A stretch of DNA of 64,000 bases from Escherichia coli (GCF_003334305.1 NZ_QOWS01000017.1), one strand, 5' to 3'; numbered from the stretch's first letter, positions 388 through 15,816 are shown. Numbers and translations are program-made. Notes: generated from the letters alone by a model not told the origin.

Positions 388-2721
388 ATGAAAATGAACG
401 TAACCGCCACCGTCAGCCATGCACTCGGCCACTGGCCGCGTATTCTCCCGGCGCTGGGGATTCAGGTGCTGAAAAACCGTCATCAGCCCTGTCCGGTCTG
501 TGGCGGGAGTGACCGCTTCCGTTTTGATGACAGGGAGGGGCGCGGCACCTGGTACTGCAATCAGTGTGGTGCCGGTGACGGCCTGAAACTGGTTGAAAAG
601 GTGTTTGGTGTTTCCCCGTCCGACGCGGCCGCAAAGGTGGCTGCCGTGACCGGCAGCCTGCCACCGGCTGACCCGGCAGTGACGGCCGCCGCCGTTGCTG
701 AAACAGACGCTGCCCGGAAGAACGCCGCCACACTGGCACAAACCCTGATGGCGAAAACCCGTACCGGAACCGGTAACGCCTACCTGACCCGCAAGGGCTT
801 TCCCGGCCGGGAATGCCGGATGCTGACCGGCACACACAGAGCCGGTGGCGTGAGCTGGCGCGCCGGTGACCTTGTGGTGCCACTGTATGACGACAGCGGC
901 GAACTGGTTAACCTTCAGTTAATCAGTGCTGACGGCCGTAAGCGCACCCTGAAAGGCGGACAGGTCAGGGGCACCTGTCACACCCTTGAAGGACAGAATC
1001 AGGCCGGAAAACGTCTGTGGATAGCGGAGGGATACGCGACCGCACTTACCGTACATCACCTGACCGGTGAAACGGTGATGGTGGCGCTTTCTTCCGTGAA
1101 CCTCCTTTCTCTGGCCAGCCTTGCCCGGCAGAAGCATCCGGCCTGTCAGATTGTCCTTGCCGCAGACCGTGACCTCAGCGGTGACGGCCAGAAAAAAGCC
1201 GCCGCAGCCGCAGATGCGTGTGAGGGCGTTGTTGCCCTGCCGCCGGTCTTCGGTGACTGGAATGATGCCTTCACGCAGTACGGCGGGGAGGCCACCCGTA
1301 AGGCCATTTACGATGCCATCCGGCCACCGGCTGAAAGCCCGTTCGACACCATGAGCGAAGCAGAGTTTTCCGCCATGAGTACCAGCGAAAAGGCCATGCG
1401 TATCTATGAGCATTACGGTGAGGCGCTCGCGGTCGATGCCAACGGCCAGCTTCTGTCTCGCTATGAAAATGGTGTCTGGAAGGTGCTGCCGCCACAGGAC
1501 TTTGCCCGGGATGTGGCCGGGCTGTTTCAGCGTCTGCGCGCGCCGTTCTCCTCCGGGAAGGTGGCCTCCGTGGTGGACACCCTGAAGCTGATTATTCCGC
1601 AGCAGGAAGCCCCCTCCCGCCGCCTGATTGGCTTTCGTAACGGTGTGCTCGACACACAGAACGGCACGTTCCACCCGCACAGTCCGTCACACTGGATGCG
1701 CACCCTGTGCGATGTGGATTTCACCCCGCCGGTGGACGGTGAAACGCTGGAGACCCACGCCCCCGCGTTCTGGCGCTGGCTTGACCGTGCCGCCGGTGGC
1801 CGTGCGGAAAAACGCGACGTGATTCTGGCCGCACTGTTTATGGTGCTGGCAAACCGCTATGACTGGCAGCTCTTTCTGGAGGTGACCGGTCCCGGCGGCA
1901 GCGGCAAAAGTATCATGGCCGAAATAGCCACCCTGCTGGCCGGGGAGGATAACGCCACGTCGGCCACCATTGAGACGCTGGAATCCCCGCGTGAACGTGC
2001 CGCGTTAACTGGCTTCTCACTGATACGCCTGCCGGACCAGGAAAAATGGAGCGGCGACGGTGCCGGACTCAAGGCCATCACCGGCGGCGATGCGGTGTCC
2101 GTTGACCCGAAATACCGGGATGCATACTCCACGCATATCCCGGCGGTGATTCTGGCCGTGAACAATAACCCGATGCGCTTCACCGACCGCAGCGGCGGCG
2201 TGTCACGCCGGCGGGTGATTATTCACTTCCCGGAACAGATAGCCCCGCAGGAGCGCGACCCGCAGCTTAAGGACAAAATCACCCGCGAGCTGGCGGTCAT
2301 CGTGCGTCACCTGATGCAGAAGTTCAGCGACCCGATGCTCGCCCGGTCACTGCTTCAGTCCCAGCAGAACTCAGACGAGGCGCTGAACATCAAACGGGAT
2401 GCCGACCCGACGTTTGATTTTATCGGCTATCTGGAAACCCTGCCGCAGACCAGCGGCATGTATATGGGGAACGCCAGTATCATCCCGCGTAATTACCGTA
2501 AATACCTCTATCACGCCTATCTGGCCTACATGGAGGCAAACGGCTACCGGAATGTACTCAGTCTGAAAATGTTCGGGCTGGGGCTGCCGGTGATGCTGAA
2601 GGAATACGGACTGAATTACGAGAAGCGCCATACCAAACAGGGGATACAGACCAACCTGACGCTGAAAGAGGAAAGCTACGGCGACTGGCTGCCAAAATGT
2701 GACGACCCTGCAACAACCTGA
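388..2721 (+). CDS. P4 alpha-type bifunctional primase/helicase
   Basis: 777-aa ORF with AAGGAG RBS; N-terminal zinc ribbon CPVCGG...YCNQCG; Walker A GPGGSGKS at about aa 500; architecture and length match satellite phage P4 alpha as I recall it. Confidence 0.9.
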   Translation: MKMNVTATVSHALGHWPRILPALGIQVLKNRHQPCPVCGGSDRFRFDDREGRGTWYCNQCGAGDGLKLVEKVFGVSPSDAAAKVAAVTGSLPPADPAVTAAAVAETDAARKNAATLAQTLMAKTRTGTGNAYLTRKGFPGRECRMLTGTHRAGGVSWRAGDLVVPLYDDSGELVNLQLISADGRKRTLKGGQVRGTCHTLEGQNQAGKRLWIAEGYATALTVHHLTGETVMVALSSVNLLSLASLARQKHPACQIVLAADRDLSGDGQKKAAAAADACEGVVALPPVFGDWNDAFTQYGGEATRKAIYDAIRPPAESPFDTMSEAEFSAMSTSEKAMRIYEHYGEALAVDANGQLLSRYENGVWKVLPPQDFARDVAGLFQRLRAPFSSGKVASVVDTLKLIIPQQEAPSRRLIGFRNGVLDTQNGTFHPHSPSHWMRTLCDVDFTPPVDGETLETHAPAFWRWLDRAAGGRAEKRDVILAALFMVLANRYDWQLFLEVTGPGGSGKSIMAEIATLLAGEDNATSATIETLESPRERAALTGFSLIRLPDQEKWSGDGAGLKAITGGDAVSVDPKYRDAYSTHIPAVILAVNNNPMRFTDRSGGVSRRRVIIHFPEQIAPQERDPQLKDKITRELAVIVRHLMQKFSDPMLARSLLQSQQNSDEALNIKRDADPTFDFIGYLETLPQTSGMYMGNASIIPRNYRKYLYHAYLAYMEANGYRNVLSLKMFGLGLPVMLKEYGLNYEKRHTKQGIQTNLTLKEESYGDWLPKCDDPATT

Positions 2722-2728
2722 CCCACCT

Positions 2729-2754
2729 GACCGGCATCTGCCGGTCTTTTTTTA
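2729..2754 (+). terminator. rho-independent terminator after primase gene
   Basis: GACCGGC-atct-GCCGGTC hairpin followed by T7 run, 8 bp after the stop codon. Confidence 0.65.
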
Positions 2755-2770
2755 TCCCTGAATTCCCCGA

Positions 2771-3070
2771 AGGTGAACAATCCACTGTTCACCCTTCACC
2801 GTATATTCACCCGTTATCACACTGAAATTAAAAGAGAAAAACGAAAGGTGAACAGTGTGAACAATCAAATCAAAAAAAACTTTTTTCTTCCTGAGTGATT
2901 TCAGCACGGGAAATTAATCCCCTGCACAAGTCACACCGGCAGAATGCCGGAGGTGAAGAATCGAATGTTCACCCTTCACCCATTATTCACCACCTATCCA
3001 ACTGAAATAAAAGGAGAAAACAGAAAGGTGAACAGTGTGAACAGTTCTTTCGAAAAAAAATTTTTTTCTT
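2771..3070. repeat. crr-like replication region: two ~120-bp direct repeats carrying TGTTCACC/GGTGAACA octamers
   Basis: Units at 2771-2890 and 2951-3070 (period 180 bp) align nearly base for base; each has at least three copies of the P4 type I iteron octamer in both orientations and ends in an A8/T8 tract. Confidence 0.75.
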
Positions 3071-3184
3071 ATTTTTAATTGTGCGAAAAACAAGCGACAC
3101 ACGCAGTGTGTATAGATATGTGTATAGTTATATTTTTTGAATATTATAATGTATTACAAATCAATGTGTTAGCTTGTAATATTC

Positions 3185-3203
3185 ACTCCTATTATCGGCA
3201 CCA
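3185..3203 (+). other. att core copy (tRNA-Thr 3'-end-like, ACTCCTATTATCGGCACCA)
   Basis: 19-nt string matching the T-arm-to-CCA end of thrW as I recall it; no full tRNA upstream; second copy at 15262-15279. Confidence 0.6.
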
Positions 3204-3808
3204 TCAAGAAAATCAATAACTTAGCTTAACTTCTCTAAGAAATTGTATCTTCTGTTATCACTTACAAACGCCTATACGTTGTTATGGGCTTTGGTAGTGT
3301 AACACGTATGGGCGAGTAGTTCCCAGGCTCAACCTCGTAACAAGTTCCTTTGAAGCTGGAAGACGTGCCACCGTCTCTAAACCTTCTACCAAAACTCTTA
3401 GCAAGATGTTCCACACCTGGCGCGGTGTCCAATGATGCTACACGTCGTGAGACGTTGCAGAGGATAAACAGGCTAAATGATGGGAAGAGTTTTAAGTGCA
3501 ATAGTGGATTAAAGCCCACCTCTTCAAAACCTAACTTGATCGGGAAAGAATCAAGCTCTAGCACGGTTTCGTCCACCGGAGTACAACGGGTGCCTGATAA
3601 GAGAAGAACTGCTAAGACTTCATAGCTTTTGTGAAAAAGCCCTTTTTAGTGGATACGCCTACGGCGCTTATTTTTTGGTATAACCATCAAAGGCGCTTTA
3701 TGGCTCCTATTGTCTTGAAAATGTATCTTTACTTGTATTGTGTTTTATGCGTAGTCTCCCTGTGTAGTATGTAACTTGTTAATTTTCATATGAATACAGA
3801 GGCACACG

Positions 3809-3967
3809 ATGAAAAACATTGCAGCTATCAAACGGAATAACCGCAAGATTCACGCTCGTAAGTTCCTGTCTACGCCAGAAGGAAAAGCCTGGCTAGAGCG
3901 TAAACAGAGAGAAAACGAAGAAAGAAAACTCCTTAGTGAGTTGAAATGGCTTAGAGAGGATTTCTGA
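3809..3967 (+). CDS. small basic protein (52 aa), hypothetical
   Basis: ATG with AGAGG-like RBS; Lys/Arg-rich; below the size cut-off of the ORF track; translated by hand. Confidence 0.3.
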   Translation: MKNIAAIKRNNRKIHARKFLSTPEGKAWLERKQRENEERKLLSELKWLREDF

Positions 3968-4260
3968 AAATCTCCAGAACGCAACAGGACGCATTCTAAC
4001 GCTGTTTTCATTACTCGGTATAGGGATTATAGGTGATGTGTGTTTAATGCGTCTGTGAGCTTGTTTTGTGCCTTATTTTGCATTTTCATAATGCAGGAGA
4101 GAACACGGAAAGCCTTAAAATTAATTATTGGGGTATTTAAGGCTATTTTTAGGTTATTTAAGGGTATTAAACTTGATTTAATTGATTGAAATATAAACAG
4201 ATAATTATGTATCTTATTGATTTATAAGGTTATTTTTAAATAAAGGTAAATAAAAAATAA

Positions 4261-4300
4261 ATAGCCATAAATAGCTATAAATACATCTAAATACCTATAT
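4261..4300. repeat. four tandem 10-bp A-rich units (ATAGCCATAA / ATAGCTATAA / ATACATCTAA / ATACCTATAT)
   Basis: Read directly; 10-bp period equals the helical repeat, suggesting bent DNA or a phased binding site. Confidence 0.6.
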
Positions 4301-4713
4301 CCCTTCCCTTATGGCTAGATTGCGAGAAGTGCTTAACGCGATTTTCAGCGCCCCCCGATCTGGAAAATCCAGAATCCCCAAATATCAGCAAGGAATTTTC
4401 TTGCGTAATCAACATCGTTTTTACCTATTAAATCATTACACAGAAAGCCTTTCTGTAATGTCTCTCACTAAACTTTCACTAAACACGAGAATGATCGGTT
4501 TTATGTCGGATCAGATGCTAGAAATAGCACCACGTCTCACAAGGGCTGTAAGCGATGAAACCAGTGTTTATGCGGGTGCAGGTCAAAATATAGGCCAAAA
4601 TACATTTAACATAATAAACGTAATATGCACTAAGGAACACATAGAACGCCTTGAGTTGATGTATCAGGGGAAAAGTGGTGGATTTTTTACGTAGGAGCAC
4701 GAGAGGGCTTCTA

Positions 4714-4741
4714 TTGACTTTTGTATGCTATGAAATATAAT
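4714..4741 (+). promoter_or_regulatory. candidate sigma70 promoter (TTGACT-16-TATAAT)
   Basis: Consensus-like hexamers with 16-bp spacer; no convincing ORF downstream, so it may drive a non-coding transcript through the repeat region. Confidence 0.35.
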
Positions 4742-5088
4742 AGAAGGTTTTTTTATGTTGATAGTGATTGCACATTAAAGATTGAAAGCAAATTTAAACA
4801 TAAATTTTCAACACGTGAAAGAGAACTTGTTCGACAAATGATAAAACGTTTATTGAGCAACAATTTTGCAGTGATGCGCTATATGCCGAATTACACAAGG
4901 CTTTGCGAAAGTGATGTAAAAGTGAAGAAAGTAAGAATTGCAACTTTAAGCTACTTTTCATTGAATTTTTTAGTATGGAATTACACAGGAATAAGTTAGG
5001 GATATTCTATGATTTACACAGGGAATATAGGGGGATTATGGCACACACATAGAAAGACATTACACAAAGTGCTATGTGACAAATGGAT

Positions 5089-5300
5089 GTAACGAGAGGT
5101 TACATTCAGCTATCTGAAATGCTCTCTGTAAGAAAGTTGGTAGTAACGATATGTTACATAGACTAATTATTGAATGTAACGATATTACACATCGGTAGTA
5201 ACGATACGTTACATCGACTAATTATTGAATGTAACGATATTACACATCGGTAGTAACGATACGTTACATCGACAGATGATTGGATGTAACGAAAGGTTAC
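5089..5300. repeat. array of seven 15-bp palindromic sites GTAACGA(t/a)A(t/c)GTTAC (iteron/operator/centromere-like)
   Basis: Sites start at 5089, 5143, 5176, 5198, 5231, 5253 and 5286; spacings 54/33/22/33/22/33 bp are all near multiples of 11 bp; includes a 56-bp unit repeated in tandem. Confidence 0.8.
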
Positions 5301-6398
5301 ACAATAAGACTATATTATTTATAATACTAAATAAAACTATATTAGATTATTAATTAGATCATAATAATATTCTTTATATCTATATATATGATCTTTTGCC
5401 TTCCGGCGTTAGCTTCACTCCCTGGCAAGCAGCCTTACTCCGCTACCTTTCGGGCTACGTTGGCTGGCCCGTTCCGCTCACACCGAAAGCAAAGCGTTAC
5501 TTTCTTCGTGTAACTATCGTGGCGGTAACGCCCACGAAGAAATACTATTGCGCTGTGCGCAGAAGAGTAATCACCTAACCAATCATAGATTGCTTATGTG
5601 TTAACTCTCTCTACCTCTTAATTCCACTTCCTACATTTAATAACTCTGTTATTCTCTGTAGTTGTGTAATTACTCGAAGAGAGAGCGGCTAAAGCTCAAT
5701 TACACTCTGCTTTCCTCGTGTAAGTTCACTAAGCCTCAATACAATTTCACTTCCTACATTCTGTAGTCGTGTAATTGTTTTCGGTGGAAAAGCCAGAGGC
5801 GACACCGAAAGAGAATTCTGATCTTATTAATCTTATCTATCTTAGTTAATCTTCTTACTTTATCTACTTTATTATTAATAATAGCTTTATAAGCTCTGTG
5901 TAGCTCTCTGACGCAAGAAACAGCATTCAGGAAGGGAATCACCTTAGAAAAGGTGTTCTTTGCGTCATAATGTGTTTTATGAAGGATTCAGAGGTGTTTC
6001 ATAACAGGAATGTATAGAGGATATTTTAATTAATTAAAAATAAGGGGTCTAAATGCTTCTCTAACAACATTAAGCAGGGTAGGGAATGGAAACGCATTGC
6101 CTACATATAATAAGCTCACTACAGGGCTTTACAGAGCGTTTTATAAAGTGACTCTCTGTTTTATATTTACCATTACCTTTTCATATACCTAACAAATACA
6201 AAATAAGCCCCTTCAATAAGCCTCTGGCGAGCGAAACAGCCATTAGATAAGGGAATGTATTGCTTTTATCAAAATCTCGTCAGAATGCGATTGAGAGTGT
6301 TTTAGCGGATAATGAAGAATAGCACTACATAGAAGAGCACGAATTGTTAAGCAAAATCATAACATACTGAAAAAGATCAGTTTTTTTGTGAAAAGGTA

Positions 6399-6427
6399 TT
6401 GACAAACGTCTCTTTCTGTGCAATAAT
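6399..6427 (+). promoter_or_regulatory. candidate sigma70 promoter (TTGACA-17-AATAAT) for the cargo operon
   Basis: Consensus -35 and near-consensus -10; about 125 nt upstream of the first RBS-preceded ORF, with a hairpin-rich leader. Confidence 0.5.
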
Positions 6428-6554
6428 AGGTATTAGAGGGGACAGGAATAGATTCTTATCCTCTAAATAATTAAACCAATGCACCGCACTTTGAAGCCCA
6501 AGAGGCTTGCAAGGTGTTTTTTCTTTTAACCAAATCGAATAAGGAGGCTAATTA

Positions 6555-6731
6555 ATGAAATATTTCACTCCACAGGATGTAGTAGAAGCCTGGAAACGTG
6601 GTGAGATCAACCGCTTTAAAGTAAGGATGTATAGAAACACCGCTCGCCGTTGTGGTTATCCAGAGCGTGAAAAATGTTTTGACGATGCACTGAAAATTAT
6701 TGATGAACTGCGTAAAGCTGAGAAAGAATAA
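6555..6731 (+). CDS. hypothetical small protein (58 aa)
   Basis: AAGGAGG RBS 6 nt upstream of ATG; first gene after the promoter; translated by hand. Confidence 0.5.
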   Translation: MKYFTPQDVVEAWKRGEINRFKVRMYRNTARRCGYPEREKCFDDALKIIDELRKAEKE

Positions 6732-6753
6732 TAGACAAGAGAAGGAGAAAACT

Positions 6754-6921
6754 ATGAGCGAAACTAAGAAACCAATTCCGCGCACTTACCTTCACGTTGA
6801 CCCTGAAATCTTCAAGGTTTTATTTGCTGAAGCCAAGAAAAGGCAAATTATGGTCAGTGATTTGATGTTAGAAATCATTACTGAAGCAGCAGAGAACATC
6901 AAACAAAAAAAGGGTAAGTGA
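6754..6921 (+). CDS. ribbon-helix-helix-like DNA-binding protein (55 aa)
   Basis: GAAGGAG RBS; N-terminal beta-strand-like segment (RTYLHV) followed by two short helices, an Arc/CopG-type pattern; inferred from sequence pattern only. Confidence 0.5.
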   Translation: MSETKKPIPRTYLHVDPEIFKVLFAEAKKRQIMVSDLMLEIITEAAENIKQKKGK

Positions 6922-6974
6922 TCCTCATTCACTTTAGTAGCGCATTAAGCGTGATTTATAAGGAGATGATTCTA

Positions 6975-7718
6975 ATGTCTAAAATTAAATTGATTCGTGA
7001 AAAATACCAGTATGTTGATAAACAAACAGGAGAAATTAAAGACCGAACTTTGAATATACCGCATTACTTTTGTGAGATTGAATTTATCTACTCCTCAAGT
7101 GTTGATGGTGGAAAAGTTAAGTTTAGTGCAGAAATGCAAAAATTATATTGCTATGTTTCAGATTGGGAGAAATCAGGGGGGATATGTTTTGAAACACAAA
7201 CGAAGTTAAGTAAAGTTTGTGGCTGTAGCCGTAAGACAGTTAATGAACTGATTGGTCTTATGATTAAAATCGGTCTTTTAGAAGAGGTCGGAGAACGAAT
7301 TCCAAAACGTCCTTTAAAATTACGTGCGCTACCTCTCACAGATGCACATATTACTCCCCCAGGAGAATCATCACTCTCTGATCTTTCTGAGGCAGAAGAA
7401 GCACAGGAACAACCTAAAGGCCATAAACAGCCTTCTTTTGATGTTCTTGATGATTGGGATGCGCCTTTACCGTGGGAGACGGAAGAAACACCTGTTTCAT
7501 CAAGTGAAAAGGTAGCTAATGATAATGAGGAGGATGTATTAGAGAATTTTGCCTCTCTTATCATCCAGGAGAAACACACAAGAACAGGAGGAGCATCATT
7601 TATTGAGTTTGCAAATTCACTAGCTTATAGATACGGGCTAAAACGACCAAATGGTATTGAGGCATATTTTTCTAAGAATTACCCAAATGTATATGATGAA
7701 TTTGATATTCCCTTTTAA
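6975..7718 (+). CDS. winged-helix DNA-binding protein with acidic linker (247 aa), possible replication initiator or regulator
   Basis: AAGGAG RBS; helix-turn-helix-like segment LSKVCGCSRKTVNELIGLMIKIGLLEE; Asp/Glu-rich middle; stop overlaps the next RBS. Confidence 0.55.
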   Translation: MSKIKLIREKYQYVDKQTGEIKDRTLNIPHYFCEIEFIYSSSVDGGKVKFSAEMQKLYCYVSDWEKSGGICFETQTKLSKVCGCSRKTVNELIGLMIKIGLLEEVGERIPKRPLKLRALPLTDAHITPPGESSLSDLSEAEEAQEQPKGHKQPSFDVLDDWDAPLPWETEETPVSSSEKVANDNEEDVLENFASLIIQEKHTRTGGASFIEFANSLAYRYGLKRPNGIEAYFSKNYPNVYDEFDIPF

Positions 7719-7748
7719 TAAGGAGGACTATGATTCAATATTTAGTAA

Positions 7749-8009
7749 AAAAATCAAGTAGACAGAATTCAGTGTAATGACACAGGAAAACGCATCTACG
7801 AAACACTTGCTTACCTCTATAAAGGAAAGCCAACACCGCTAAAATATAGCGATGTGTTACATCGAGCAGGGTGCTCTGAAGCTGGTTTAAAATTCTGGCT
7901 GAAACAGCTATCAAATTTCGGTGTTATTGAAATGAAAGAGCTGTCTTTTTCTACATTCAATCTCAAAAGATTAGATAAAGAAATAGAATTCATCTATTCC
8001 ACTCTCTAA
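7749..8009 (+). CDS. second winged-helix-like ORF lacking a canonical start (frameshift/slippage or pseudogene candidate)
   Basis: Open frame encoding ...YSDVLHRAGCSEAGLKFWLKQLSNFGVIEM...; an AGGAGG-ATG at 7730 opens a 15-codon ORF in another frame that crosses an A7 run (7747-7753) directly before this frame opens. Confidence 0.3.
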   Translation, partial: KNQVDRIQCNDTGKRIYETLAYLYKGKPTPLKYSDVLHRAGCSEAGLKFWLKQLSNFGVIEMKELSFSTFNLKRLDKEIEFIYSTL

Positions 8010-8141
8010 AATCTCTCTATGTAATTAAAATATAAAAGGAAAACATTATTATGATAGTAGCTATGTATTGGTTATTGTTCTTTCTCACGTTAGAAGCATA
8101 CTTTGGGGTGTTTTCCTTTAAAAGAAAAGGAAAAGTAAATA

Positions 8142-8558
8142 ATGGCAAAAAGAAAAAACAACGTTGTTAAGAAAATCGGTGATTCAGCTTCTCTTCTAAG
8201 TAAACCTAAACCTAAATCTATTCTAAGACGTAAAGACTTTAAAGAGCTAGTTACGCTCACCAAGCAAAATAGCGCCCCTGGCGAATGGAAAACAGAGATC
8301 ATAGAACATTCTCCCTCTGTGCCTTGTGGAGATGAATTTAACGCCTTGCAAGAAATCTTATCTTCAACACCTGGCGTATTCTGGAAACCTAGAAAAAGAA
8401 AAGAGTATATCGTTGATAGCTCTGATTTACGCAAATACCAGATTTTAGGATTTGAAGATTATAACCACTACGTCGGTTATCTCGCCACCAATGGCCTAAA
8501 TAATTTAGTTCCTGAATTCCAAATTTTAGATAATGCTGATCACTATGGAGACTTTTAA
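8142..8558 (+). CDS. hypothetical protein (138 aa), basic N-terminus
   Basis: ATG preceded by AAAGGAAAAG; no motif recognised. Confidence 0.5.
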   Translation: MAKRKNNVVKKIGDSASLLSKPKPKSILRRKDFKELVTLTKQNSAPGEWKTEIIEHSPSVPCGDEFNALQEILSSTPGVFWKPRKRKEYIVDSSDLRKYQILGFEDYNHYVGYLATNGLNNLVPEFQILDNADHYGDF

Positions 8559-8559
8559 T

Positions 8560-8898
8560 ATGAACAAAAACACGTATGACACAATTTATTCACTAATTAA
8601 TTATTATGAGGATGATTACCTCCTGCCTTTAAACCGCGCTGAACTTGAAGCATACAAAGAAAACACGCCAGGGGCGCTAAATGAGGCGTTTAAACACTGG
8701 GATTTAGCTGTGAATGCCTTTGAGCACCTTTCTAAAAGAGTAGAGATGCTCTGTAAGCGTGAAAACGCATACCTGACAGCCGATCAGATATGGGAGCTAT
8801 CAAACTGGATAGAAGATATTGAATCTGATGTTCGCTATGTAGGGGATGGCCTGGTTGAATTAGCTCAACGCTTAGGCGCTACTATCACAGAAGAATAA
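8560..8898 (+). CDS. hypothetical acidic protein (112 aa)
   Basis: ATG 8560 with GGAG 7 nt upstream, 1 nt after the previous stop; an in-frame upstream ATG at 8533 would overlap the previous gene. Confidence 0.5.
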   Translation: MNKNTYDTIYSLINYYEDDYLLPLNRAELEAYKENTPGALNEAFKHWDLAVNAFEHLSKRVEMLCKRENAYLTADQIWELSNWIEDIESDVRYVGDGLVELAQRLGATITEE

Positions 8899-8927
8899 AA
8901 AAAGCAACAAAAAAGTTGTAAAATATC

Positions 8928-8956
8928 TTGACATTCCATCTATTGTATGTTAATAT
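8928..8956 (+). promoter_or_regulatory. candidate sigma70 promoter (TTGACA-17-TAATAT)
   Basis: Consensus -35; located in a 350-bp gap inside the operon. Confidence 0.45.
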
Positions 8957-9093
8957 AATTATATAGGGGTGATTATTTTTCCTTTATTGGTTCGATATTA
9001 AAAATTCTTCCTGTCATTAAAGGGGAGTAAAATCTCCGCTCCCCGCTTCTCCTCCTTAAGTAAATACTGTGTCATTATACCTCTTTTTTCCTT

Positions 9094-9125
9094 TGTTATG
9101 CATACATCTTGGAGTATGCATAACA
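9094..9125. promoter_or_regulatory. 12-bp perfect inverted repeat TGTTATGCATAC-N8-GTATGCATAACA (operator or RNA hairpin)
   Basis: Read directly; lies between the 8928 promoter and the next gene. Confidence 0.6.
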
Positions 9126-9165
9126 TAGGGTAATTACATAGGTATGAGTTAATAAAAGGCGGCTC

Positions 9166-9189
9166 TAAATGCTGCCTTTTATTTTGCCC
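9166..9189 (+). terminator. weak intrinsic terminator or attenuator
   Basis: AGGCGGC-tctaaat-GCTGCCT stem with one G-U pair, followed by TTTTATTTT. Confidence 0.4.
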
Positions 9190-9247
9190 GTTATGCAACT
9201 TAAAAGTTGTATTTCTTACTTTAAAAAAGGTAACAAGGTTTATATAA

Positions 9248-9460
9248 ATGTTGTTTTTAAACGATAAAGAGCAAATCATCAAGTATAAAGATGAAATGCT
9301 GAAAATTAATCCACAAATTACCGAAATGGTAGCTAAATACGCTGGGTGTTCTGTCGAGGAAGTAGAAAGATGTGTTGAAAAATATTTTTCTCCTTCTACT
9401 CCGTCTACACCTTCCCTTAATGAATTAATCAAATTAAAAGCTAAGGAGATTACTAAATGA
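9248..9460 (+). CDS. hypothetical protein (70 aa)
   Basis: ATG with AAGG upstream; stop overlaps the start of the next gene (ATGA). Confidence 0.5.
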   Translation: MLFLNDKEQIIKYKDEMLKINPQITEMVAKYAGCSVEEVERCVEKYFSPSTPSTPSLNELIKLKAKEITK

Positions 9461-9819
9461 TTATTGATTTAGACACTCTGTTTCCAGTTAGAAAGACTTT
9501 CACAGATATTGTAAGTTATTGTACTGATCCGTTTGCCTCTGTAGAAAGCAAGGTTTTTGCTTCTCTTCCTGCTGATGTTGAGTGCGGCGACTTGATCACC
9601 AGTACTGGCGCTAAATATGAATCAGGAGATGATATCTATGTTGTTATGAGTGAATTTGTAACGGCTGGAGAAAACAAGCCTGTAGATGTGCTACGTAGTA
9701 ATGCTGGTCTTGTCTGCATCAAAGCTGATGCGCTGAATGCTGTAAGTGAAGCAGCAAAAACAGCATTAATTAAAAAAGGCTTCCAGCTTGAAGGGTTCCA
9801 TTCTGTTTTCACTTCTTAA
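9457..9819 (+). CDS. hypothetical protein (120 aa)
   Basis: AAGGAG RBS; translationally coupled to the upstream ORF. Confidence 0.55.
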   Translation: MIIDLDTLFPVRKTFTDIVSYCTDPFASVESKVFASLPADVECGDLITSTGAKYESGDDIYVVMSEFVTAGENKPVDVLRSNAGLVCIKADALNAVSEAAKTALIKKGFQLEGFHSVFTS

Positions 9820-9837
9820 TAAAAGGAATAATAATAA

Positions 9838-10869
9838 ATGATTCTAGGTAATGATTACGTTGATTTAGCTCCGCTTTTCCAGGCACACAGCACTAGAAAC
9901 TTTCTGCTCTCTACCCTCGACTTCACTGATCCGGTGGGCGTTAGTTCTCATAAAGTAGCTGTTTCTCAGCTTGTCGAAAGCAACGAATCTCTGTTCAACA
10001 AAGAAACCTCTCGTTTCTCTTCTGAACACAATGTTACTAAGCGTGAACAAGGTAAAGAATGGCTGATTGAAATCCCGTATTTTCTTCGTGAAGATGTGAT
10101 CCGTCCTTCTGATGTTCAAGGCAAGCGTAAGCCTGGCACTGATTTTCAGGAAACACTCACTGATATCTATGCGGAATATATCGCTAAACACCACGTAGCG
10201 TATCAGCGTACAAAAGAGAGCGTGTTGGCTGCATCTCTGTTTAGCGGTAAAACTTACACGCCTAAAACTGATGATGTTCTTATCGAGTGGGGCAAGCTGT
10301 TTAACGTGGCACCTATGAAAGCCACCTTGAACGCTTCCAGCACTGACACAATGACCGTTTTCAAGCAATTTGACCAGCTTGCTACGGATATGATTGCTAA
10401 GGCACAAAACCAGGCTGCAACCATTGAGCGTGTTGTTGTGTTCTGTAAACCTGCGGCATTCAACGCTATTCGTTACAGTGTTGGTATGGTCAATGCTTTC
10501 CAATATGCAAGCCCTGTAGACGATGCCAACGTGGTGTTTAATGTGCGTTCCCTGCTACCAGGTGTAACTACTTTCACCATTCCAGGAACTAACATTGACC
10601 TGATCAAAGTGACTGATCCGCTACACCTTGCACATATGGCTTCTGATGCGGTTGCTGTGCCTAAATTCGCTAAGGGGGCAGGTGTTTACCAATCTATCTA
10701 TGGGGCAGCTTCCAGCACCTTTGAACTGATCAATGCCGCTCCTGCTGAGGTGTATAGCTATAGCTATGAATCTTCTTCTCGTGGTGATGCTGTTAACGTT
10801 GTTACAGAGAATAGCCAGATGGTGGTAAACCACGGCGTTGGTTTCTCCGTTCAAATCACTGTTAAATAA
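9838..10869 (+). CDS. hypothetical protein (343 aa), no motif recognised
   Basis: Long ORF in AT-rich DNA with AAGGA RBS; followed by a strong terminator. Confidence 0.65.
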   Translation: MILGNDYVDLAPLFQAHSTRNFLLSTLDFTDPVGVSSHKVAVSQLVESNESLFNKETSRFSSEHNVTKREQGKEWLIEIPYFLREDVIRPSDVQGKRKPGTDFQETLTDIYAEYIAKHHVAYQRTKESVLAASLFSGKTYTPKTDDVLIEWGKLFNVAPMKATLNASSTDTMTVFKQFDQLATDMIAKAQNQAATIERVVVFCKPAAFNAIRYSVGMVNAFQYASPVDDANVVFNVRSLLPGVTTFTIPGTNIDLIKVTDPLHLAHMASDAVAVPKFAKGAGVYQSIYGAASSTFELINAAPAEVYSYSYESSSRGDAVNVVTENSQMVVNHGVGFSVQITVK

Positions 10870-10887
10870 TATTTTAACGTGTAATAG

Positions 10888-10925
10888 AGGCGTGGCGTGA
10901 ATAACACGCTTCGCCTTTTTTTATT
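10888..10925 (+). terminator. rho-independent terminator
   Basis: Nested hairpin AGGCG-tg-GCGTG-aataa-CACGC-tt-CGCCT followed by a T-rich run. Confidence 0.65.
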
Positions 10926-10955
10926 TATTTTTAAATTTTGAGAGGTGATTAAAAT

Positions 10956-11159
10956 ATGGAAGTGATTCTGAAATCAAAAAATGGTGTACACGTTTATTTA
11001 GATGCTAATGATTCAAGAGGCTTGTTAAATCTGAAATATCTATGTTCTCTCTTGGATGTTCCATATGAAGGCGTAAAAGCCCGAATGTTCAGATTAAACG
11101 AGAGTATTGATCAAGCTCTACACCATTTCTTAAGCAAAGAAGGTGGTAAAAATGATTAA
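10956..11159 (+). CDS. hypothetical protein (67 aa)
   Basis: GAGAGGTGA RBS; 15 bp upstream of the 612-aa gene. Confidence 0.45.
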   Translation: MEVILKSKNGVHVYLDANDSRGLLNLKYLCSLLDVPYEGVKARMFRLNESIDQALHHFLSKEGGKND

Positions 11160-11173
11160 TAAGGGGATTTTAA

Positions 11174-13012
11174 ATGTTAGAAATTAACACTTCTAAAATT
11201 AAGAACACAGTAACATTTAGTGTAGATAAAGACAGCTTGAAAAAAGCGAAAGACTCTATTACAGGCTTAAAGGAATTCACAGAAAACATCAAGCCAGCTA
11301 AATTAAGGTTTGATAGTGTCACTAAAGGCTATAAGAAAGCACAAAGCGAAGTAGACAAGATTGCTCAACAGAAAGCTAAAACAGAAAAGCAGAATCAAAG
11401 AGCACAAGCTGCCGCAGCAAGAGCACAGGCAAGGCAACAGACACAAATAGCAGCACGTAAAGAGAAAGCAGAATTAAAGCTCCTCGATGTGTCAAGCTCT
11501 ATCAGTGCAATGCACCGCCTCTCTGTAGCGGAACAATACAAAGCTATTGCACAGGCTAGAGAGATAGCAAAACAATATGAGCAAGGGGCTATCTCGCTTG
11601 CACGTATGAATAGTCAGATGAAACGCCTACAACAGCAACAACGTAAGATTAATGGCAACAGAAAAGCTCAATTAGCCCCCGTTAAGGGAGGAGGATCAGG
11701 GAATTCCGCCACGATGGGTGCTCTGTTATTTGGAGGCGCTACAGCGGCTGCTGGCGTGATGGCTGTTAGTAAAGCGTCGGAGTTTGTTAGTAACAGTTTC
11801 GCTAACGCAGAGACACAAGGTGAGCTAATTCAACGTGCAAGGCTTGGCGGTGTAGACGTTAACCAGATGTACAACATTACAGAATGGGCCTATAGAAACG
11901 GCGTTGACTCTATGATGGGTGATCAAGGGGCTAGGAAATACCTGGATCAGATGAAAGATGTTAGGGAACGTGCCGCAAAATCCTATAGTGAAGCTGAATA
12001 TGTAGTCGATAAAAAAACTGGTAAAGGCGGCGAATGGAAAGGCGGTGATAACGCTATTAATGAACTTCTAAACATCGGTGTTATTAACAAGAGCGACCTT
12101 AAAAAATTTGCTGATAATCCAGCCGGATTAATTTCTAAGGCTGTTAATGGAATGATGAAAAAAGGGTTTTCAGACTCCCAAATTGGACAACGTTTAGAAG
12201 ACCTGGGTGATGATTTGATGCTTACATCAAAATATTGGCAACGTTCCGTTAAAGATGTACAAACAAGCATCGAGCAGCAAAAAGCCTCTGGAAAATGGCT
12301 AACAGAAACACAGCAAGATTCTATTGTTAAATTCAGAGAACTAAACAGACAGCTTTCACAGCTTTCTGATGCAAGACAAGTAGCATTTGTAGACGGCTTT
12401 ATGAAATCTCTCGATCCAAAAGTAACGGAAGAGTTTATGAAAAACCTTTCTAATCTCACTCCGTATTTTACAAAGCTGGGAGAAGCTACAGGAAGTCTCT
12501 TTGAAGCTATTATGAAGATTGTAAACTGGTTTAATCGTAATGATGATAAGACAGATGCTATTCAGAAAAATTTAGGTGATGCACCGCCATTAAGCAATGA
12601 AGGAATGAAACAGAATCTTTCTAATCTCGTTCCTGATCAATATAAAGGCGCTGGCACCGGAACAACTAAGCCAGATAACAGCAATTCCCTGTTTAACACT
12701 ATTAAGGGATTGCTTTTCGATGATAAGTCTTCTTCTGTGTCAGATGTAAAAATGTCAGTCAGCGAAGCACCGATAACCAATCTCAAACAGGGCGCTTTAA
12801 ATAATCTTGCAATGACAACTCCGGCTTATAATTTATCTCCTGTGTTTAATCTGAATCCTACATTTGAAGTGGTAACAGAGGTTCCTCTTACTATTAATTC
12901 TGACACATCAAGATTAAGCGATTATGTGGATTTTACAGCGAGATCAAGTCGGGATAGCTTCTTGAAATCATTAACATTAACCAGCTTATCAGGACAATCT
13001 AACGGCGGGTAA
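11174..13012 (+). CDS. large coiled-coil protein with central Gly-rich hydrophobic segment (612 aa); tape-measure-like or membrane-interacting, function unknown
   Basis: AAGGGG RBS; N-terminal approx. 150 aa rich in Q/A/R/K/E; segment GGGSGNSATMGALLFGGATAAAGVMAV; no NTP-binding or catalytic motif seen. Confidence 0.7.
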   Translation: MLEINTSKIKNTVTFSVDKDSLKKAKDSITGLKEFTENIKPAKLRFDSVTKGYKKAQSEVDKIAQQKAKTEKQNQRAQAAAARAQARQQTQIAARKEKAELKLLDVSSSISAMHRLSVAEQYKAIAQAREIAKQYEQGAISLARMNSQMKRLQQQQRKINGNRKAQLAPVKGGGSGNSATMGALLFGGATAAAGVMAVSKASEFVSNSFANAETQGELIQRARLGGVDVNQMYNITEWAYRNGVDSMMGDQGARKYLDQMKDVRERAAKSYSEAEYVVDKKTGKGGEWKGGDNAINELLNIGVINKSDLKKFADNPAGLISKAVNGMMKKGFSDSQIGQRLEDLGDDLMLTSKYWQRSVKDVQTSIEQQKASGKWLTETQQDSIVKFRELNRQLSQLSDARQVAFVDGFMKSLDPKVTEEFMKNLSNLTPYFTKLGEATGSLFEAIMKIVNWFNRNDDKTDAIQKNLGDAPPLSNEGMKQNLSNLVPDQYKGAGTGTTKPDNSNSLFNTIKGLLFDDKSSSVSDVKMSVSEAPITNLKQGALNNLAMTTPAYNLSPVFNLNPTFEVVTEVPLTINSDTSRLSDYVDFTARSSRDSFLKSLTLTSLSGQSNGG

Positions 13013-13046
13013 TTCCCGCCATAACATTACAAGGAAAATTATTATT

Positions 13047-13760
13047 ATGGCGACCGCCGGGATTTTAACCATACGTGCAGCAAATACTCCAGAACAACAC
13101 GTTCAGGCTGTTTACAAAGCAGAACAAGATATAAATTCTACAAAAAACGAAAATAGCAAAGCTAATAAAACAAAAGGAGAGAACGGATTTGCTATTGTTA
13201 CCAGTGGCTTGGCATCTTCTGGCAATGACGTTTATGAAAATTATATGGCCCTGGCCTTTGACAGTGTAGACGATGTGAACGTGAGACGTTCGGCAGATGT
13301 CACAAGCTACCCCGTAGAAAATGGTGCTACTGTGTCTGATCACGTTCAAATTAAAAACAATAAGTTTTCTCTTAAAGGAAGGATCACTGAAACACCGATT
13401 AAAAGCGATCCTGGCTTGTTAAAGAGTGCAGGGGTGAACGGGAACAGAAGATCATTAGCCATAGACTACTTGAATCAGATTATGGACAGTAGACAGCCTT
13501 TTCTTCTTGTTACAGAAAATAAAACTTTTGAGAACGTTGTTTTAACAGGCATCGAATACACAGAAGAGGCAAGCGAATCCCTGGTATTTGATCTTAGCTT
13601 TGAGCAGATCAGATTAGTTTCTTATGGCACTGTATCCACTATTGCACTTAAAACACAACCATCTAAGAACATCGGGGCGAATATGAAAAAACGTGTTAAC
13701 ACTGAAAAATCAAGTAGTGAAGGTGAAGACACTATTACTCCTGCCTTTAAGCAGAAATAG
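13047..13760 (+). CDS. hypothetical protein (237 aa)
   Basis: AAGGA RBS; last gene of the + strand operon, convergent with the integrase. Confidence 0.6.
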   Translation: MATAGILTIRAANTPEQHVQAVYKAEQDINSTKNENSKANKTKGENGFAIVTSGLASSGNDVYENYMALAFDSVDDVNVRRSADVTSYPVENGATVSDHVQIKNNKFSLKGRITETPIKSDPGLLKSAGVNGNRRSLAIDYLNQIMDSRQPFLLVTENKTFENVVLTGIEYTEEASESLVFDLSFEQIRLVSYGTVSTIALKTQPSKNIGANMKKRVNTEKSSSEGEDTITPAFKQK

Positions 13761-13803
13761 CCGTAAACGCCTCTAAAACGCTCTGTAACGATGTAATTAT
13801 AAA

Positions 13804-13840
13804 AGAGGCTGCCAATCTATGTTGAAGCCTCTTTATTGTG
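13804..13840. terminator. bidirectional terminator between convergent operon and integrase
   Basis: AGAGGCT-N15-AGCCTCT hairpin flanked by T-rich runs on both strands. Confidence 0.5.
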
Positions 13841-13841
13841 T

Positions 13842-15176
13842 TTATGGCGTTGTTTTACGCCTTAAATTTGATTTTTTATTGATTGATAAGCCTTTCTCTA
13901 TTTCAGGGTAGCGTAGAAGCTCAATATAGTTTTTAAGCTCTACTGGAGAAGCTGCATTCTTGCTATATGTGCGGAATGTCTCTGTATTGCCGCGTGTATG
14001 GCCCAGGAGAAGGGCGATCCTGTCTTCTGGAATTTGATTTCGATCAAGAAGCTGTGCTACTCCGTGTCTCAGAGAATGAAACACTTTCCTTTCTGTTCCC
14101 TTTTCCCCTAAAGCCTTTCGTTTAGCTCTTGTAAATCTCTGCGTGTGCCACGTGGAACGTTTACCATCAGCACGCTCTGTAATGCTGGCGTGATAGAACA
14201 AAAAGCCATTATGAGGCTTTTCACGCAGCGACAACACCAACGGAGTGATAAGGCTATGTACAGGCACAACACGTGCCGCAGCTTTCGTTTTTCCCTGTGT
14301 GATTTCAAAACACAGCACACCTTCGATCTCTTTCACATCGTCTATTGTGAGACTTGCTATCTCATTGATCCGCATACCTGTATATAAACCGATAAGACAC
14401 AAAGCCATCATTTCTTTGTTTTCTGCTGAATTACCGGAAAATACTTGCAACACCTGCAATAGCTCTTTGTTAGAAAATGCCTCGTAGCTCTCTCTACTTT
14501 GTGCCACATCAAGCCTATGCCCTCGCCAGGGGGAGAGCGCCCTTTCTGGCGCATCGTGGTAACGTGATGAAGCTAACTCCCATAGCTGGGCTATTGGGCT
14601 GATATAATTTGCAATTGATTGTTGTGAAAGAGTTTTTTGCATGTGTTCTATCCAGCCTGTAACAGTGGTGCGGCTCACATCTTGCAATGCAATATCAGGC
14701 TTTTTACGGTAGGAGAGAAACATCTCTACCGCTTTTCTTGCCTTAGCTAAAGTGGCTGGCTTCTTCTTCGTGCTGTTAATTGTCAGGTAGATTTCAAGAA
14801 TTTTAAGCAATGACGGACACGAAGACGCTGTATCTTGCATTCTGGTAGCTGTTTTGGCGTATTTAGCCTTACTGCGTAACAGCTCCAGCGTGTTCTCTAT
14901 TGTGCTGTTTACAGGGGCGACACTCTCCCGTAGGCAATGGTATTCATCTGCAATCTGATCACGCTTTCTACGTGCAACACGAAGATTATTTGTGTGTAGA
15001 CTTCTGACAAACGTCCTTTTTCCTTCAAAAAAGGGCTGCATATACACAGGCAGCGTGATCCTTAAATAGTAGTTACCGTAAGAATCACAGATTAAGTATT
15101 GGTTAGGCTTGTATCTCATAAAATCTCCGGCTAAAGTGTCGGAGCGTTTGTAATGTGAAAATTGATTGTAACGCAT
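13842..15176 (-). CDS. tyrosine-type site-specific integrase
   Basis: Box I GMRINE, box II HSLRHG, LLGH, and a C-terminal tyrosine in TFRTYS; ATG at 15176 (a TTG at 15206 gives the 454-aa track ORF); sits directly inside the right att copy. Confidence 0.85.
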   Translation of the reverse strand: MRYNQFSHYKRSDTLAGDFMRYKPNQYLICDSYGNYYLRITLPVYMQPFFEGKRTFVRSLHTNNLRVARRKRDQIADEYHCLRESVAPVNSTIENTLELLRSKAKYAKTATRMQDTASSCPSLLKILEIYLTINSTKKKPATLAKARKAVEMFLSYRKKPDIALQDVSRTTVTGWIEHMQKTLSQQSIANYISPIAQLWELASSRYHDAPERALSPWRGHRLDVAQSRESYEAFSNKELLQVLQVFSGNSAENKEMMALCLIGLYTGMRINEIASLTIDDVKEIEGVLCFEITQGKTKAAARVVPVHSLITPLVLSLREKPHNGFLFYHASITERADGKRSTWHTQRFTRAKRKALGEKGTERKVFHSLRHGVAQLLDRNQIPEDRIALLLGHTRGNTETFRTYSKNAASPVELKNYIELLRYPEIEKGLSINKKSNLRRKTTP

Positions 15177-15218
15177 AGAAAATGATAATTTTTCTATAAG
15201 ATTCAATCAATTAGTAAT

Positions 15219-15279
15219 GGTCGTAGGTGATGGCATTAACACGAGATTAATCGAGTGTTTTACTCCTATTATCGCACCA
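15219..15279 (+). pseudogene. tRNA-Thr 3'-half remnant (ptwF-like) containing the right att core copy
   Basis: GGTCGTAGGT, then a 33-nt unrelated insert, then ACTCCTATTATCG-CACCA; not a foldable tRNA. Confidence 0.55.
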
Positions 15280-15405
15280 TTAAAATCAAAGAGTTACCCC
15301 ATATTTAAATACACCACGTTTCCTCCTGTGCCGCATTTGTGCCATTGTAACCTTGGCAATTCATCAAAATACTGTTCTGACATCAGGCAGTGCAGGTGCA
15401 GCTAT

Positions 15406-15816
15406 TTAAACCAATTGCTGCCGCCATTCTTTGACGTAGTCAATCAGGGCGCGGAGCTTTGGTGCAATATTGCGACGCTGTGGGAAATACAGATAGAAGC
15501 CCGGAAATTGTGGAAGAAAGTCATCAAGCAGCGATACAAGCTTACCGCTTTCAATATATGGCCTGAAAGTTTCCTGAGTGGCAATTGTTATTCCTCCGCC
15601 GGCAAGAGCCAGCCTCAACATCAGACGCAGATCATTAGTCGTAATCTGCGGTTCAATCGCAAGGTCGAAAGTTCTCCCGTTTTCTTCAAATGGCCAGCGA
15701 TAAGGCGCAACCTCCGGGGACTGACGCCAGCCGATACACTTATGGGTATTTCCCCCGGAGGCGAGAAAGCGCTCTCCACGCCCGGCCGCAAGGATCAGGA
15801 CGACGGGGGCAGGCAT
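15406..15816 (-). pseudogene. yagP: LysR-family regulator fragment (C-terminal substrate-binding domain only)
   Basis: 136-aa reading frame from MPAPVV... matching the yagP remnant as I recall it; no N-terminal HTH domain present; overlaps the paoD 3' end. Confidence 0.6.

Follow-up and report, generated by a model that had tools for sequence, protein, structure and literature searches.

The satellite P4 is an integrative element of the 11.6-kb class that uses a tRNA site, brings its own replication module and carries the DNA-end sequence (cos) of its temperate helper P2, whose terminase packages P4 into a small T=4 capsid. Here we describe a 12.1-kb AT-rich element at positions 3204-15279 of a 64,000-nt stretch of Escherichia coli DNA (NZ_QOWS01000017.1; the whole stretch is called the window below). 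Similar to P4, the element is integrative, belongs to the same size class, occupies a tRNA site, has a putative replication module of its own and carries what appears to be the DNA-end sequence of a group of phages, in this case large myoviruses of the subfamily Stephanstirmvirinae. Unlike P4, which obtains its small capsid from the helper coat protein via Sid and Psu, the element encodes its own major capsid protein (MCP), decoration-like protein and tail-assembly proteins, and no matches to psu, delta, sid or the alpha primase-helicase were found among its proteins. The presumed helpers differ from P2 as well, in that they are virulent 145-150 kb myoviruses with direct terminal repeats instead of cos ends.

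The cf-PICIs are likewise enterobacterial chromosomal islands with an HK97-fold capsid protein of their own, and they take their tails from a helper, as the element probably does. They also encode a portal, protease, head-tail connectors, small terminase, HNH, AlpA and Pri-Rep, none of which was detected in the element, whose head module consists of the MCP and the decoration-like protein only; conversely, cf-PICIs are without the tape-measure and tube-initiator genes that are both present here. Of the features that characterize PICIs, an integrase and a Rep-like protein were found, and no AlpA, primase, TerS or Ppi-like family was detected. PLE of Vibrio cholerae, with the myovirus ICP1 as helper, and the PICMIs of Vibrionaceae share with the element an integrated state, a virulent helper (presumed in our case) and an own Rep at an iteron origin. 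The sequences are unrelated, however, and Escherichia and Klebsiella are not known as hosts of either group. PLE relies on a large serine recombinase and a RepA_N protein and remodels the ICP1 coat protein, and PICMIs have no capsid genes, whereas the element has a tyrosine integrase, an O-like Rep and Enterobacteriaceae hosts. As summarised in PMC11476376, the Acinetobacter satellite phage Aci01-2-Phanie has a genome of ~12 kb and its own capsid and uses the tail of an unrelated virulent myophage. Phanie is phi29-like, protein-primed and non-integrating with its own packaging ATPase, whereas the element integrates, encodes an MCP of the lambda-gpE type and has tail genes and a DNA-end motif in common with its presumed helper; we rejected Phanie, an unrelated phi29-like system, as a relative. 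The element is thus neither P4 nor a PICI, cf-PICI or PLE, and most likely represents a new satellite family. With some reserve, we favour the reading that the members of this family are phage satellites of large virulent Stephanstirmvirinae myoviruses.

Two elements in tandem at thrW

The layout outside the window was read from the RefSeq annotation of E. coli A7 (NZ_CP028767.1), which is 100% identical to the region, and genome counts refer to 5,426 complete E. coli genomes. The order in A7 is proA, thrW, an 11.8-kb P4-like satellite, a core repeat, the 12.1-kb element, a second core repeat, a yagP fragment and paoDCBA, with thrW (tRNA-Thr) located ~8.6 kb left of window position 1. The left core (ACTCCTATTATCGGCACCA; 3185-3203, plus strand) matches the last 19 nt of thrW exactly, including CCA. 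The right core (ACTCCTATTATCG-CACCA; 15262-15279, plus strand), which constitutes attR of the 12-kb element, is the same 19-mer minus one G of a GG pair; since other carriers (ST866 and IMG/VR loci) have an exact 19-20 nt match here, the missing G is private to strain A7. The original prediction had reported both copies at these positions in the same orientation and had likened them to the 3′ end of tRNA-Thr, and comparison with thrW of the source genome bears this out as an exact match. It had further placed the right copy in a tRNA 3′-half remnant, which is exact over the 19-nt core, while the ~45 nt upstream are element DNA, conserved among element copies and only loosely tRNA-like. The longer ptwF pseudo-tRNA of K-12 is part of another island, CP4-6.

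Matches to the core are hardly a matter of chance, as 0.01 are expected in shuffles of the window even when up to three mismatches are allowed. No tRNA gene was found in a search of the window, which rules out that the repeats belong to a local tRNA, and an Rfam scan over 2700-15400 at E <= 1 returned two sub-threshold chance matches only. As predicted, the DNA between the repeats is AT-rich, with a GC content of 38.7% compared to 56-64% in both flanks. The yagP fragment (LysR-type; 15406-15744, minus strand, RefSeq annotation) belongs to the chromosomal flank; yagP is already a fragment, holding the LysR substrate-binding domain, at empty thrW sites, and an intact yagP is annotated in O157 Sakai.

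Relatives with other combinations of these parts are frequent. In ST866 the block directly follows thrW, and the sequence after the core (TCAAGAAAATCAATAAC...) is identical to the window from 3204 onward. Direct joining of thrW to TCAAGAAAATC..., i.e. the element alone without P4 DNA, was found in 393 genomes, and the junction from P4 to the block in two. The empty site, rebuilt as a 521-nt sequence by joining thrW to the DNA beyond the right core, is present without interruption and at 100% identity in 948 genomes. We looked both for relatives in which the block has other boundaries and for an absence of the empty site and found neither; the boundaries in ST866 and in the 393 genomes are identical to those in the window. 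There is hence hardly any doubt that one att site holds two independent elements in tandem, the products of site-specific integration into the thrW 3′ end, which was the first of two options in the original prediction.

The tyrosine integrase of the element is encoded at its right end (13842-15119, minus strand; PHROG 1, E = 1.5e-33). Integrases found at thrW are those of the P4-like satellite, of CP4-6 (IntF) and of the 12-kb element; the P4-like enzyme is unrelated to that of the element, and the latter shares 24% identity with K-12 IntF, in the catalytic domain only. Given that the P4-like satellite adjoins the intact tRNA end, we infer that it arrived second: the 12.1-kb element would have integrated first, via its tyrosine integrase, and the P4-like satellite would have followed at the regenerated thrW end, which makes the middle core attR of the P4-like satellite and attL of the element at once. 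Tandem islands at thrW are routine, and att repeats alone are not news. CP4-6 of K-12 and Sp1 and Sp2 of O157 Sakai occupy the same att site beside yagP, and O157 Sakai, like A7, contains two elements in tandem at thrW, one of them P4-like. These islands are, however, unrelated to the element in gene content and integrases.

A phage terminus motif and virion genes

At 4314-4389 (plus strand), the element contains a copy of the genome terminus of its presumed helpers, TTGCGAGAAGTGCT|TAACGCGATTTTCAGCGCCCCCCGAT ... CCCCAAATATCA, in which the predicted terminase cut lies at 4333|4334 (+/-1 nt). The non-coding segment 4314-4359 is the only DNA-level match to the whole helper genome besides the start of the tape-measure gene, and the 62 records that it matches in the phage collection are all from Stephanstirmvirinae. 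The segment is 93.5% identical to positions 318-363 of phi92, which straddle 343|344, the inner edge of the direct terminal repeat of 343 bp in the phi92 annotation. For phage BME3, a terminal repeat of 342 bp has been measured with PhageTerm (PMC12210895), and Mt1B1_P17 has an exact 328-bp terminal repeat with its first base at GTGCTT|AACGCG, one nt from the phi92 annotation. Most E. coli variants of the element read TTGCGAGAGGTGCTTAACGCGATTTTCAGCGCCCCCCGAT, which is identical to phi92 and Bas62 at 40/40 positions, and A7 carries one substitution. The phi92 motif is present in 361 of the 5,426 E. coli chromosomes, once and rarely twice, in unannotated DNA.

Two further versions of the motif follow other phages. 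In a second class of E. coli variants, the module at 3962-4805 is replaced by one holding a diverged motif copy, which is 81% identical over 83 nt to Phapecoctavirus (phAPEC8-like) phages, includes a genus-specific 24-nt run and corresponds to a site 270-357 nt from the ends of the phage records. The Klebsiella element keeps the motif core and shares CCCCCATTTT, in place of the CCCCCCGAT of the E. coli pair, with a phage of Klebsiella. Because phi92 and Mt1B1_P17 end at the motif and two variant classes exist, these alignments indicate that the element carries, in helper-specific versions, the site of the physical DNA end of two helper genera. The motif presumably functions as a packaging site. 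Two observations were made alongside: a serine recombinase gene (resolvase/invertase-like) adjoins the phAPEC8-type motif on the opposite strand (L031 3290-4608; also L029, L030, L020 and L024), and a 65.8-kb gut-metagenome contig (OLUB01000024.1, L045) opens with GGTGCTTAACGCG, at a distance of 5 nt from the predicted cut, and continues across the element. This start may mark a true DNA end, or else a point where the assembly broke at a repeat shared with a phage.

The same phages reappear at the protein level. The Dit-like or tail-tube initiator protein (237 aa; 13047-13760, plus strand; Pfam PF21821, E = 7e-29) has 61% amino acid identity to the ‘tail tube initiator protein’ of Justusliebigvirus (phi92-like) and 53-56% to that of Phapecoctavirus. 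The tape-measure protein (TMP) homologue (612 aa; 11174-13012, plus strand; PHROG 16051, E = 4e-54) is 28-36% identical to phi92-like and phAPEC8-like TMPs, and the first 87 nt of its gene are 86% identical to Bas62 at the DNA level. The MCP (lambda gpE family; 9838-10869, plus strand; PHROG 29, E = 9e-14; dN/dS 0.15), with PF03864 recognized on all homologues, aligns end-to-end with the Phapecoctavirus MCP at 22% identity. The MCP gene is preceded by one for a 120-aa gpD-like capsid decoration protein (9457-9819, plus strand), assigned by fold, and the tape-measure gene by one for a 67-aa protein (10956-11159, plus strand), a position shared with a small open reading frame (ORF) in the helper phages Bas62 and phiWec190; BLASTP of the 120-aa and 67-aa proteins against the helper ORFs at the same positions gave no similarity. 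In the helper phages, the gene order is decoration protein and MCP, followed after a stretch of other genes by the small ORF, TMP and tube initiator, and the element keeps both pairs and drops everything between. Library scans of the element's proteins detected no portal, terminase, protease, sheath, tube, baseplate wedge or lysis gene. The GC content of the element (38.7%) is close to that of Bas62 (37.4%).

Homologues of the capsid, decoration-like and 138-aa proteins occur in E. coli, E. albertii, Klebsiella, Citrobacter, Enterobacter, Cronobacter, Kluyvera, Leclercia, Raoultella, Serratia and Sodalis, where all are labelled hypothetical or ‘capsid protein’; the RefSeq labels of the genes in the element itself are generic phage names. 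Loci of Klebsiella and Sodalis keep this order of genes, as do Citrobacter, Enterobacter, Cronobacter and Serratia, and dN/dS values of 0.03-0.2 were obtained for the capsid, decoration, tape-measure, Dit-like and unknown-function proteins. By these estimates, at least seven enterobacterial genera harbour the family in conserved form and under purifying selection. The family is present in about 7% of complete E. coli genomes and common in Klebsiella, and in ten E. coli copies the cores are 12,032-13,399 bp apart. Attachment sites vary: a Klebsiella copy is flanked by 24-nt repeats of a tRNA-Gly 3′ end, and E. coli M8 has an IS911-truncated copy at tRNA-Leu (leuX; L061 10649-18526), with a ParB/Srx-domain gene and an integrase pseudogene, beside a BREX system. 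The position of the M8 copy indicates that the family uses several tRNA sites.

Replication module, small genes and the P4-like neighbour

A replication initiator-like protein (O-like/winged helix) is encoded at 6975-7718 (plus strand; PHROG 270/391, E = 7.5e-7 and 2e-5). The putative origin at 5084-5385, found by repeat search, comprises five GTAACGNNNNNGTTAC palindromes (GTAACGN5GTTAC) within an array of 55-nt repeats (5084-5303) and, after it, a very AT-rich stretch. At this position, other variants combine a different repeat array with a diverged Rep, and this parallel divergence suggests that Rep and iteron modules are exchangeable between variants. The palindromic units, by variant, are GTAACGN5GTTAC, GGTAGGTCACTGTGAGCTAGGG and ACAGAATTCTGTTAGACACCCCC, with 32-mers in Klebsiella; the arrays lie at ~5430-5560 in L020, L021 and L023, at ~1517 and 5523 in L025 and L032, and at 5180-5403 in L005. 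Just past the AT-rich stretch, a 200-nt GC-rich island (5385-5580) interrupts the AT-rich non-coding DNA; its RNA folding z-scores of -1.8 and -1.9 are not compelling, and it has no Rfam match. A 22-nt AT-rich match (95%) at 6032-6053 to phi92, ~900 bp inside the right end of the phage, may be due to chance, with E = 5e-4 in a 2-kb target.

Among all E. coli variants, the left arm (3204-3953) retains 98-99% identity (blastn against 21 family loci), even in those that are only 72-75% identical in the capsid and tape-measure genes. A 52-aa ORF (3809-3967; RefSeq coding sequence WP_000788777.1) lies at this arm. The conservation of the arm possibly reflects arm-binding sites of the integrase, a recombination directionality factor or an RNA. 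A perfect 21-nt inverted repeat (3489-3509/13634-13654) pairs the left arm with the 3′ part of the Dit-like gene; the right copy is specific to A7, given that ST866 and L021 differ at 7/21 nt, and Bas62 has 13 of these nt at the homologous spot. Antisense RNA or gene conversion could explain it.

The remaining genes are small. Two conserved ORFs of 58 aa (6555-6731) and 55 aa (6754-6921), both on the plus strand, extend into Klebsiella with dN/dS of 0.06-0.33, and the 55-aa ORF gives a faint hint of an Arc-like repressor, from a PHROG match at E = 0.025 only. Three conserved proteins of 138 aa (8142-8558), 112 aa (8560-8898) and 70 aa (9248-9460), also on the plus strand, have dN/dS of 0.04-0.17 and hundreds of homologues in Klebsiella, and no match in Pfam, PHROG, NCBIfam or PADLOC; the AlphaFold2 model of the 138-aa protein is unreliable (pLDDT 53). 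A PHROG scan of ten extra small ORFs gave nothing convincing, and NCBIfam and PADLOC returned nothing beyond the integrase.

The left neighbour has the complete set of P4-like features. Within the window it is represented by the alpha primase-helicase (388-2721, plus strand; RefSeq annotation of A7 and ORF list) and a P4-type crr (2767-3066, plus strand; repeat search), formed by two 120-nt direct repeats at 2767-2886 and 2947-3066 that are 81% alike and spaced 180 nt start to start. The left core does lie past this crr, as first noted, starting 119 bp after the second repeat rather than ~125 bp. Left of the window follow the rest of the satellite: int next to thrW, nuclease and UvrD cargo, psu, delta, sid, icd-like and epsilon (derepression) genes. 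The ATP-dependent nuclease and UvrD-helicase pair sits directly after the integrase (L001 7995-11317, in A7) and looks like Gabija-type defence cargo in a known P4 hotspot.

A candidate satellite and its rivals

As in satellites, the virion and packaging gene set within the 12 kb is incomplete, and the 40-46 nt motif, with its alternative class for phAPEC8-like phages, provides a helper DNA-end signal. A fuller account seems to us about as likely as not: the element belongs to an undescribed and widespread satellite family of Stephanstirmvirinae (phi92-like and phAPEC8-like phages) that has its own decorated small capsid, is packaged by the helper terminase via a copied direct-terminal-repeat end, provides its own tape-measure and tube-initiator proteins and switches helper genus by exchanging a ~1-kb motif cassette. 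The helper of the A7 copy is probably phi92-like (Justusliebigvirus). Infection by such a phage would trigger excision and Rep-driven replication from the iteron origin, and the MCP and gpD-like protein would build a small shell of roughly T=4 capacity; a genome of 12-13 kb falls into the P4 or T=4 size class. This shell would need the helper portal and possibly helper scaffold and protease. The helper terminase would then recognise and cut the motif at 4314-4389 and package the 12-13 kb genome, and helper tails would be used, in which the tape-measure and tube-initiator proteins of the element may replace those of the helper or compete and interfere with them.

Several points weigh against this account. 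Only one of the two boundaries of the helper terminal repeat is copied, and neither the other boundary nor a second CCCCnAAATATC motif was found in the element, so a route to making a terminal repeat is not evident. Given that the MCP is only 22% identical to that of the helper and that the element has no portal or scaffold gene, a packaging-competent shell requires unproven cross-compatibility. The class of terminus site in a copy bears no relation to how similar its Dit-like protein, TMP and MCP are to either phage genus. A search of IMG/VR and metagenome contigs for the exact attP junction gave zero matches, although absence from assemblies is weak evidence, and 26 metagenome contigs with the motif's element-specific flank were aligned to thrW, the element and yagP: the contigs extending to a boundary are chromosomally flanked, and none has a terminal overlap indicating a circle. 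In open-access papers and bioRxiv preprints, searches turned up no Stephanstirmvirinae satellite or island of this kind, a scope in which an earlier description could be missed. Finally, the shared motif could serve regulation and coincide with the phage end only by chance.

Of the rival explanations, an anti-phage island that is not a transmissible satellite fares best, yet we consider it rather unlikely. Here, the diverged proteins for capsid, tape measure and tube initiator would act as poisons of helper assembly, the phage terminase would be titrated or misdirected by the copied terminus, and the island would spread by other routes. The structural genes are indeed homologous to exactly those of one virulent phage subfamily, portal and terminase genes were not detected, no packaged or circular form was found in assemblies, and satellites such as P4, SaPI and PLE often interfere with their helpers. 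However, PADLOC matched no defence family in the element, and the element combines an integrase, a Rep and iteron origin of its own, a decoration protein and a tight size of 12-13.4 kb, all of which a packaged replicon needs and a pure decoy does not. Moreover, interference and transfer are not mutually exclusive.

We give little credence to a decayed remnant, i.e. a cryptic prophage, of a temperate phi92-like relative, whose terminus motif would be a relic without present function. While phage-derived structural genes, an integrase, a tRNA att site and the generic RefSeq phage labels would suit such a remnant, and thrW is a classic cryptic-prophage site (CP4-6, Sp1), the compact gene set recurs in unchanged order in at least seven genera, and its genes are intact and under selection (dN/dS 0.03-0.2), with no pseudogene debris of other virion genes seen. 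Pseudogenes, variable truncations and relaxed selection do not characterize the family, and truncated individual copies, e.g. that of M8, do exist. Decay also sits poorly with a motif kept at 40/40 positions, and in two helper-specific classes, while the flanking non-coding DNA is unrelated to the phage.

Equally improbable, in our view, is that the shared 40-46 nt are a promoter or operator for an early protein of the helper and serve the island as an infection sensor rather than as a packaging site. In phi92 the motif lies ~340 nt upstream of the first early gene, and PLE and PICI are induced by helper proteins. Nevertheless, the conservation centres exactly on the point where the DNA physically ends in two phage genera, and the motif is GC-rich, unlike a sigma-70 promoter, and a promoter scan found no promoter-like site there. 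The second option of the original prediction, that there is only one degenerate P4-like satellite, with the AT-rich block as its int-proximal cargo and with sid, delta and psu lost, had in its favour that only alpha and crr are visible within the window and that an integrase lies at the far end of the block, and it is refuted by the separate psu, delta, sid and integrase genes just left of the window, by the 393 stand-alone copies after thrW and by a P4-to-block junction in two genomes only.

If the satellite reading is true, the element would be the first satellite linked to those large virulent phages of E. coli and Klebsiella that have direct terminal repeats. It would also represent a new satellite strategy, in which own coat, decoration and tail-assembly proteins are combined with the portal, terminase and tail of a helper, and its motif would provide a sequence-level handle on the position at which the Stephanstirmvirinae terminase cuts. 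Given that phi92-like and phAPEC8-like phages include candidates for phage therapy, 361-393 of the 5,426 E. coli genomes would then harbour a common chromosomal factor that may lower the efficacy of such phages or move DNA between strains.

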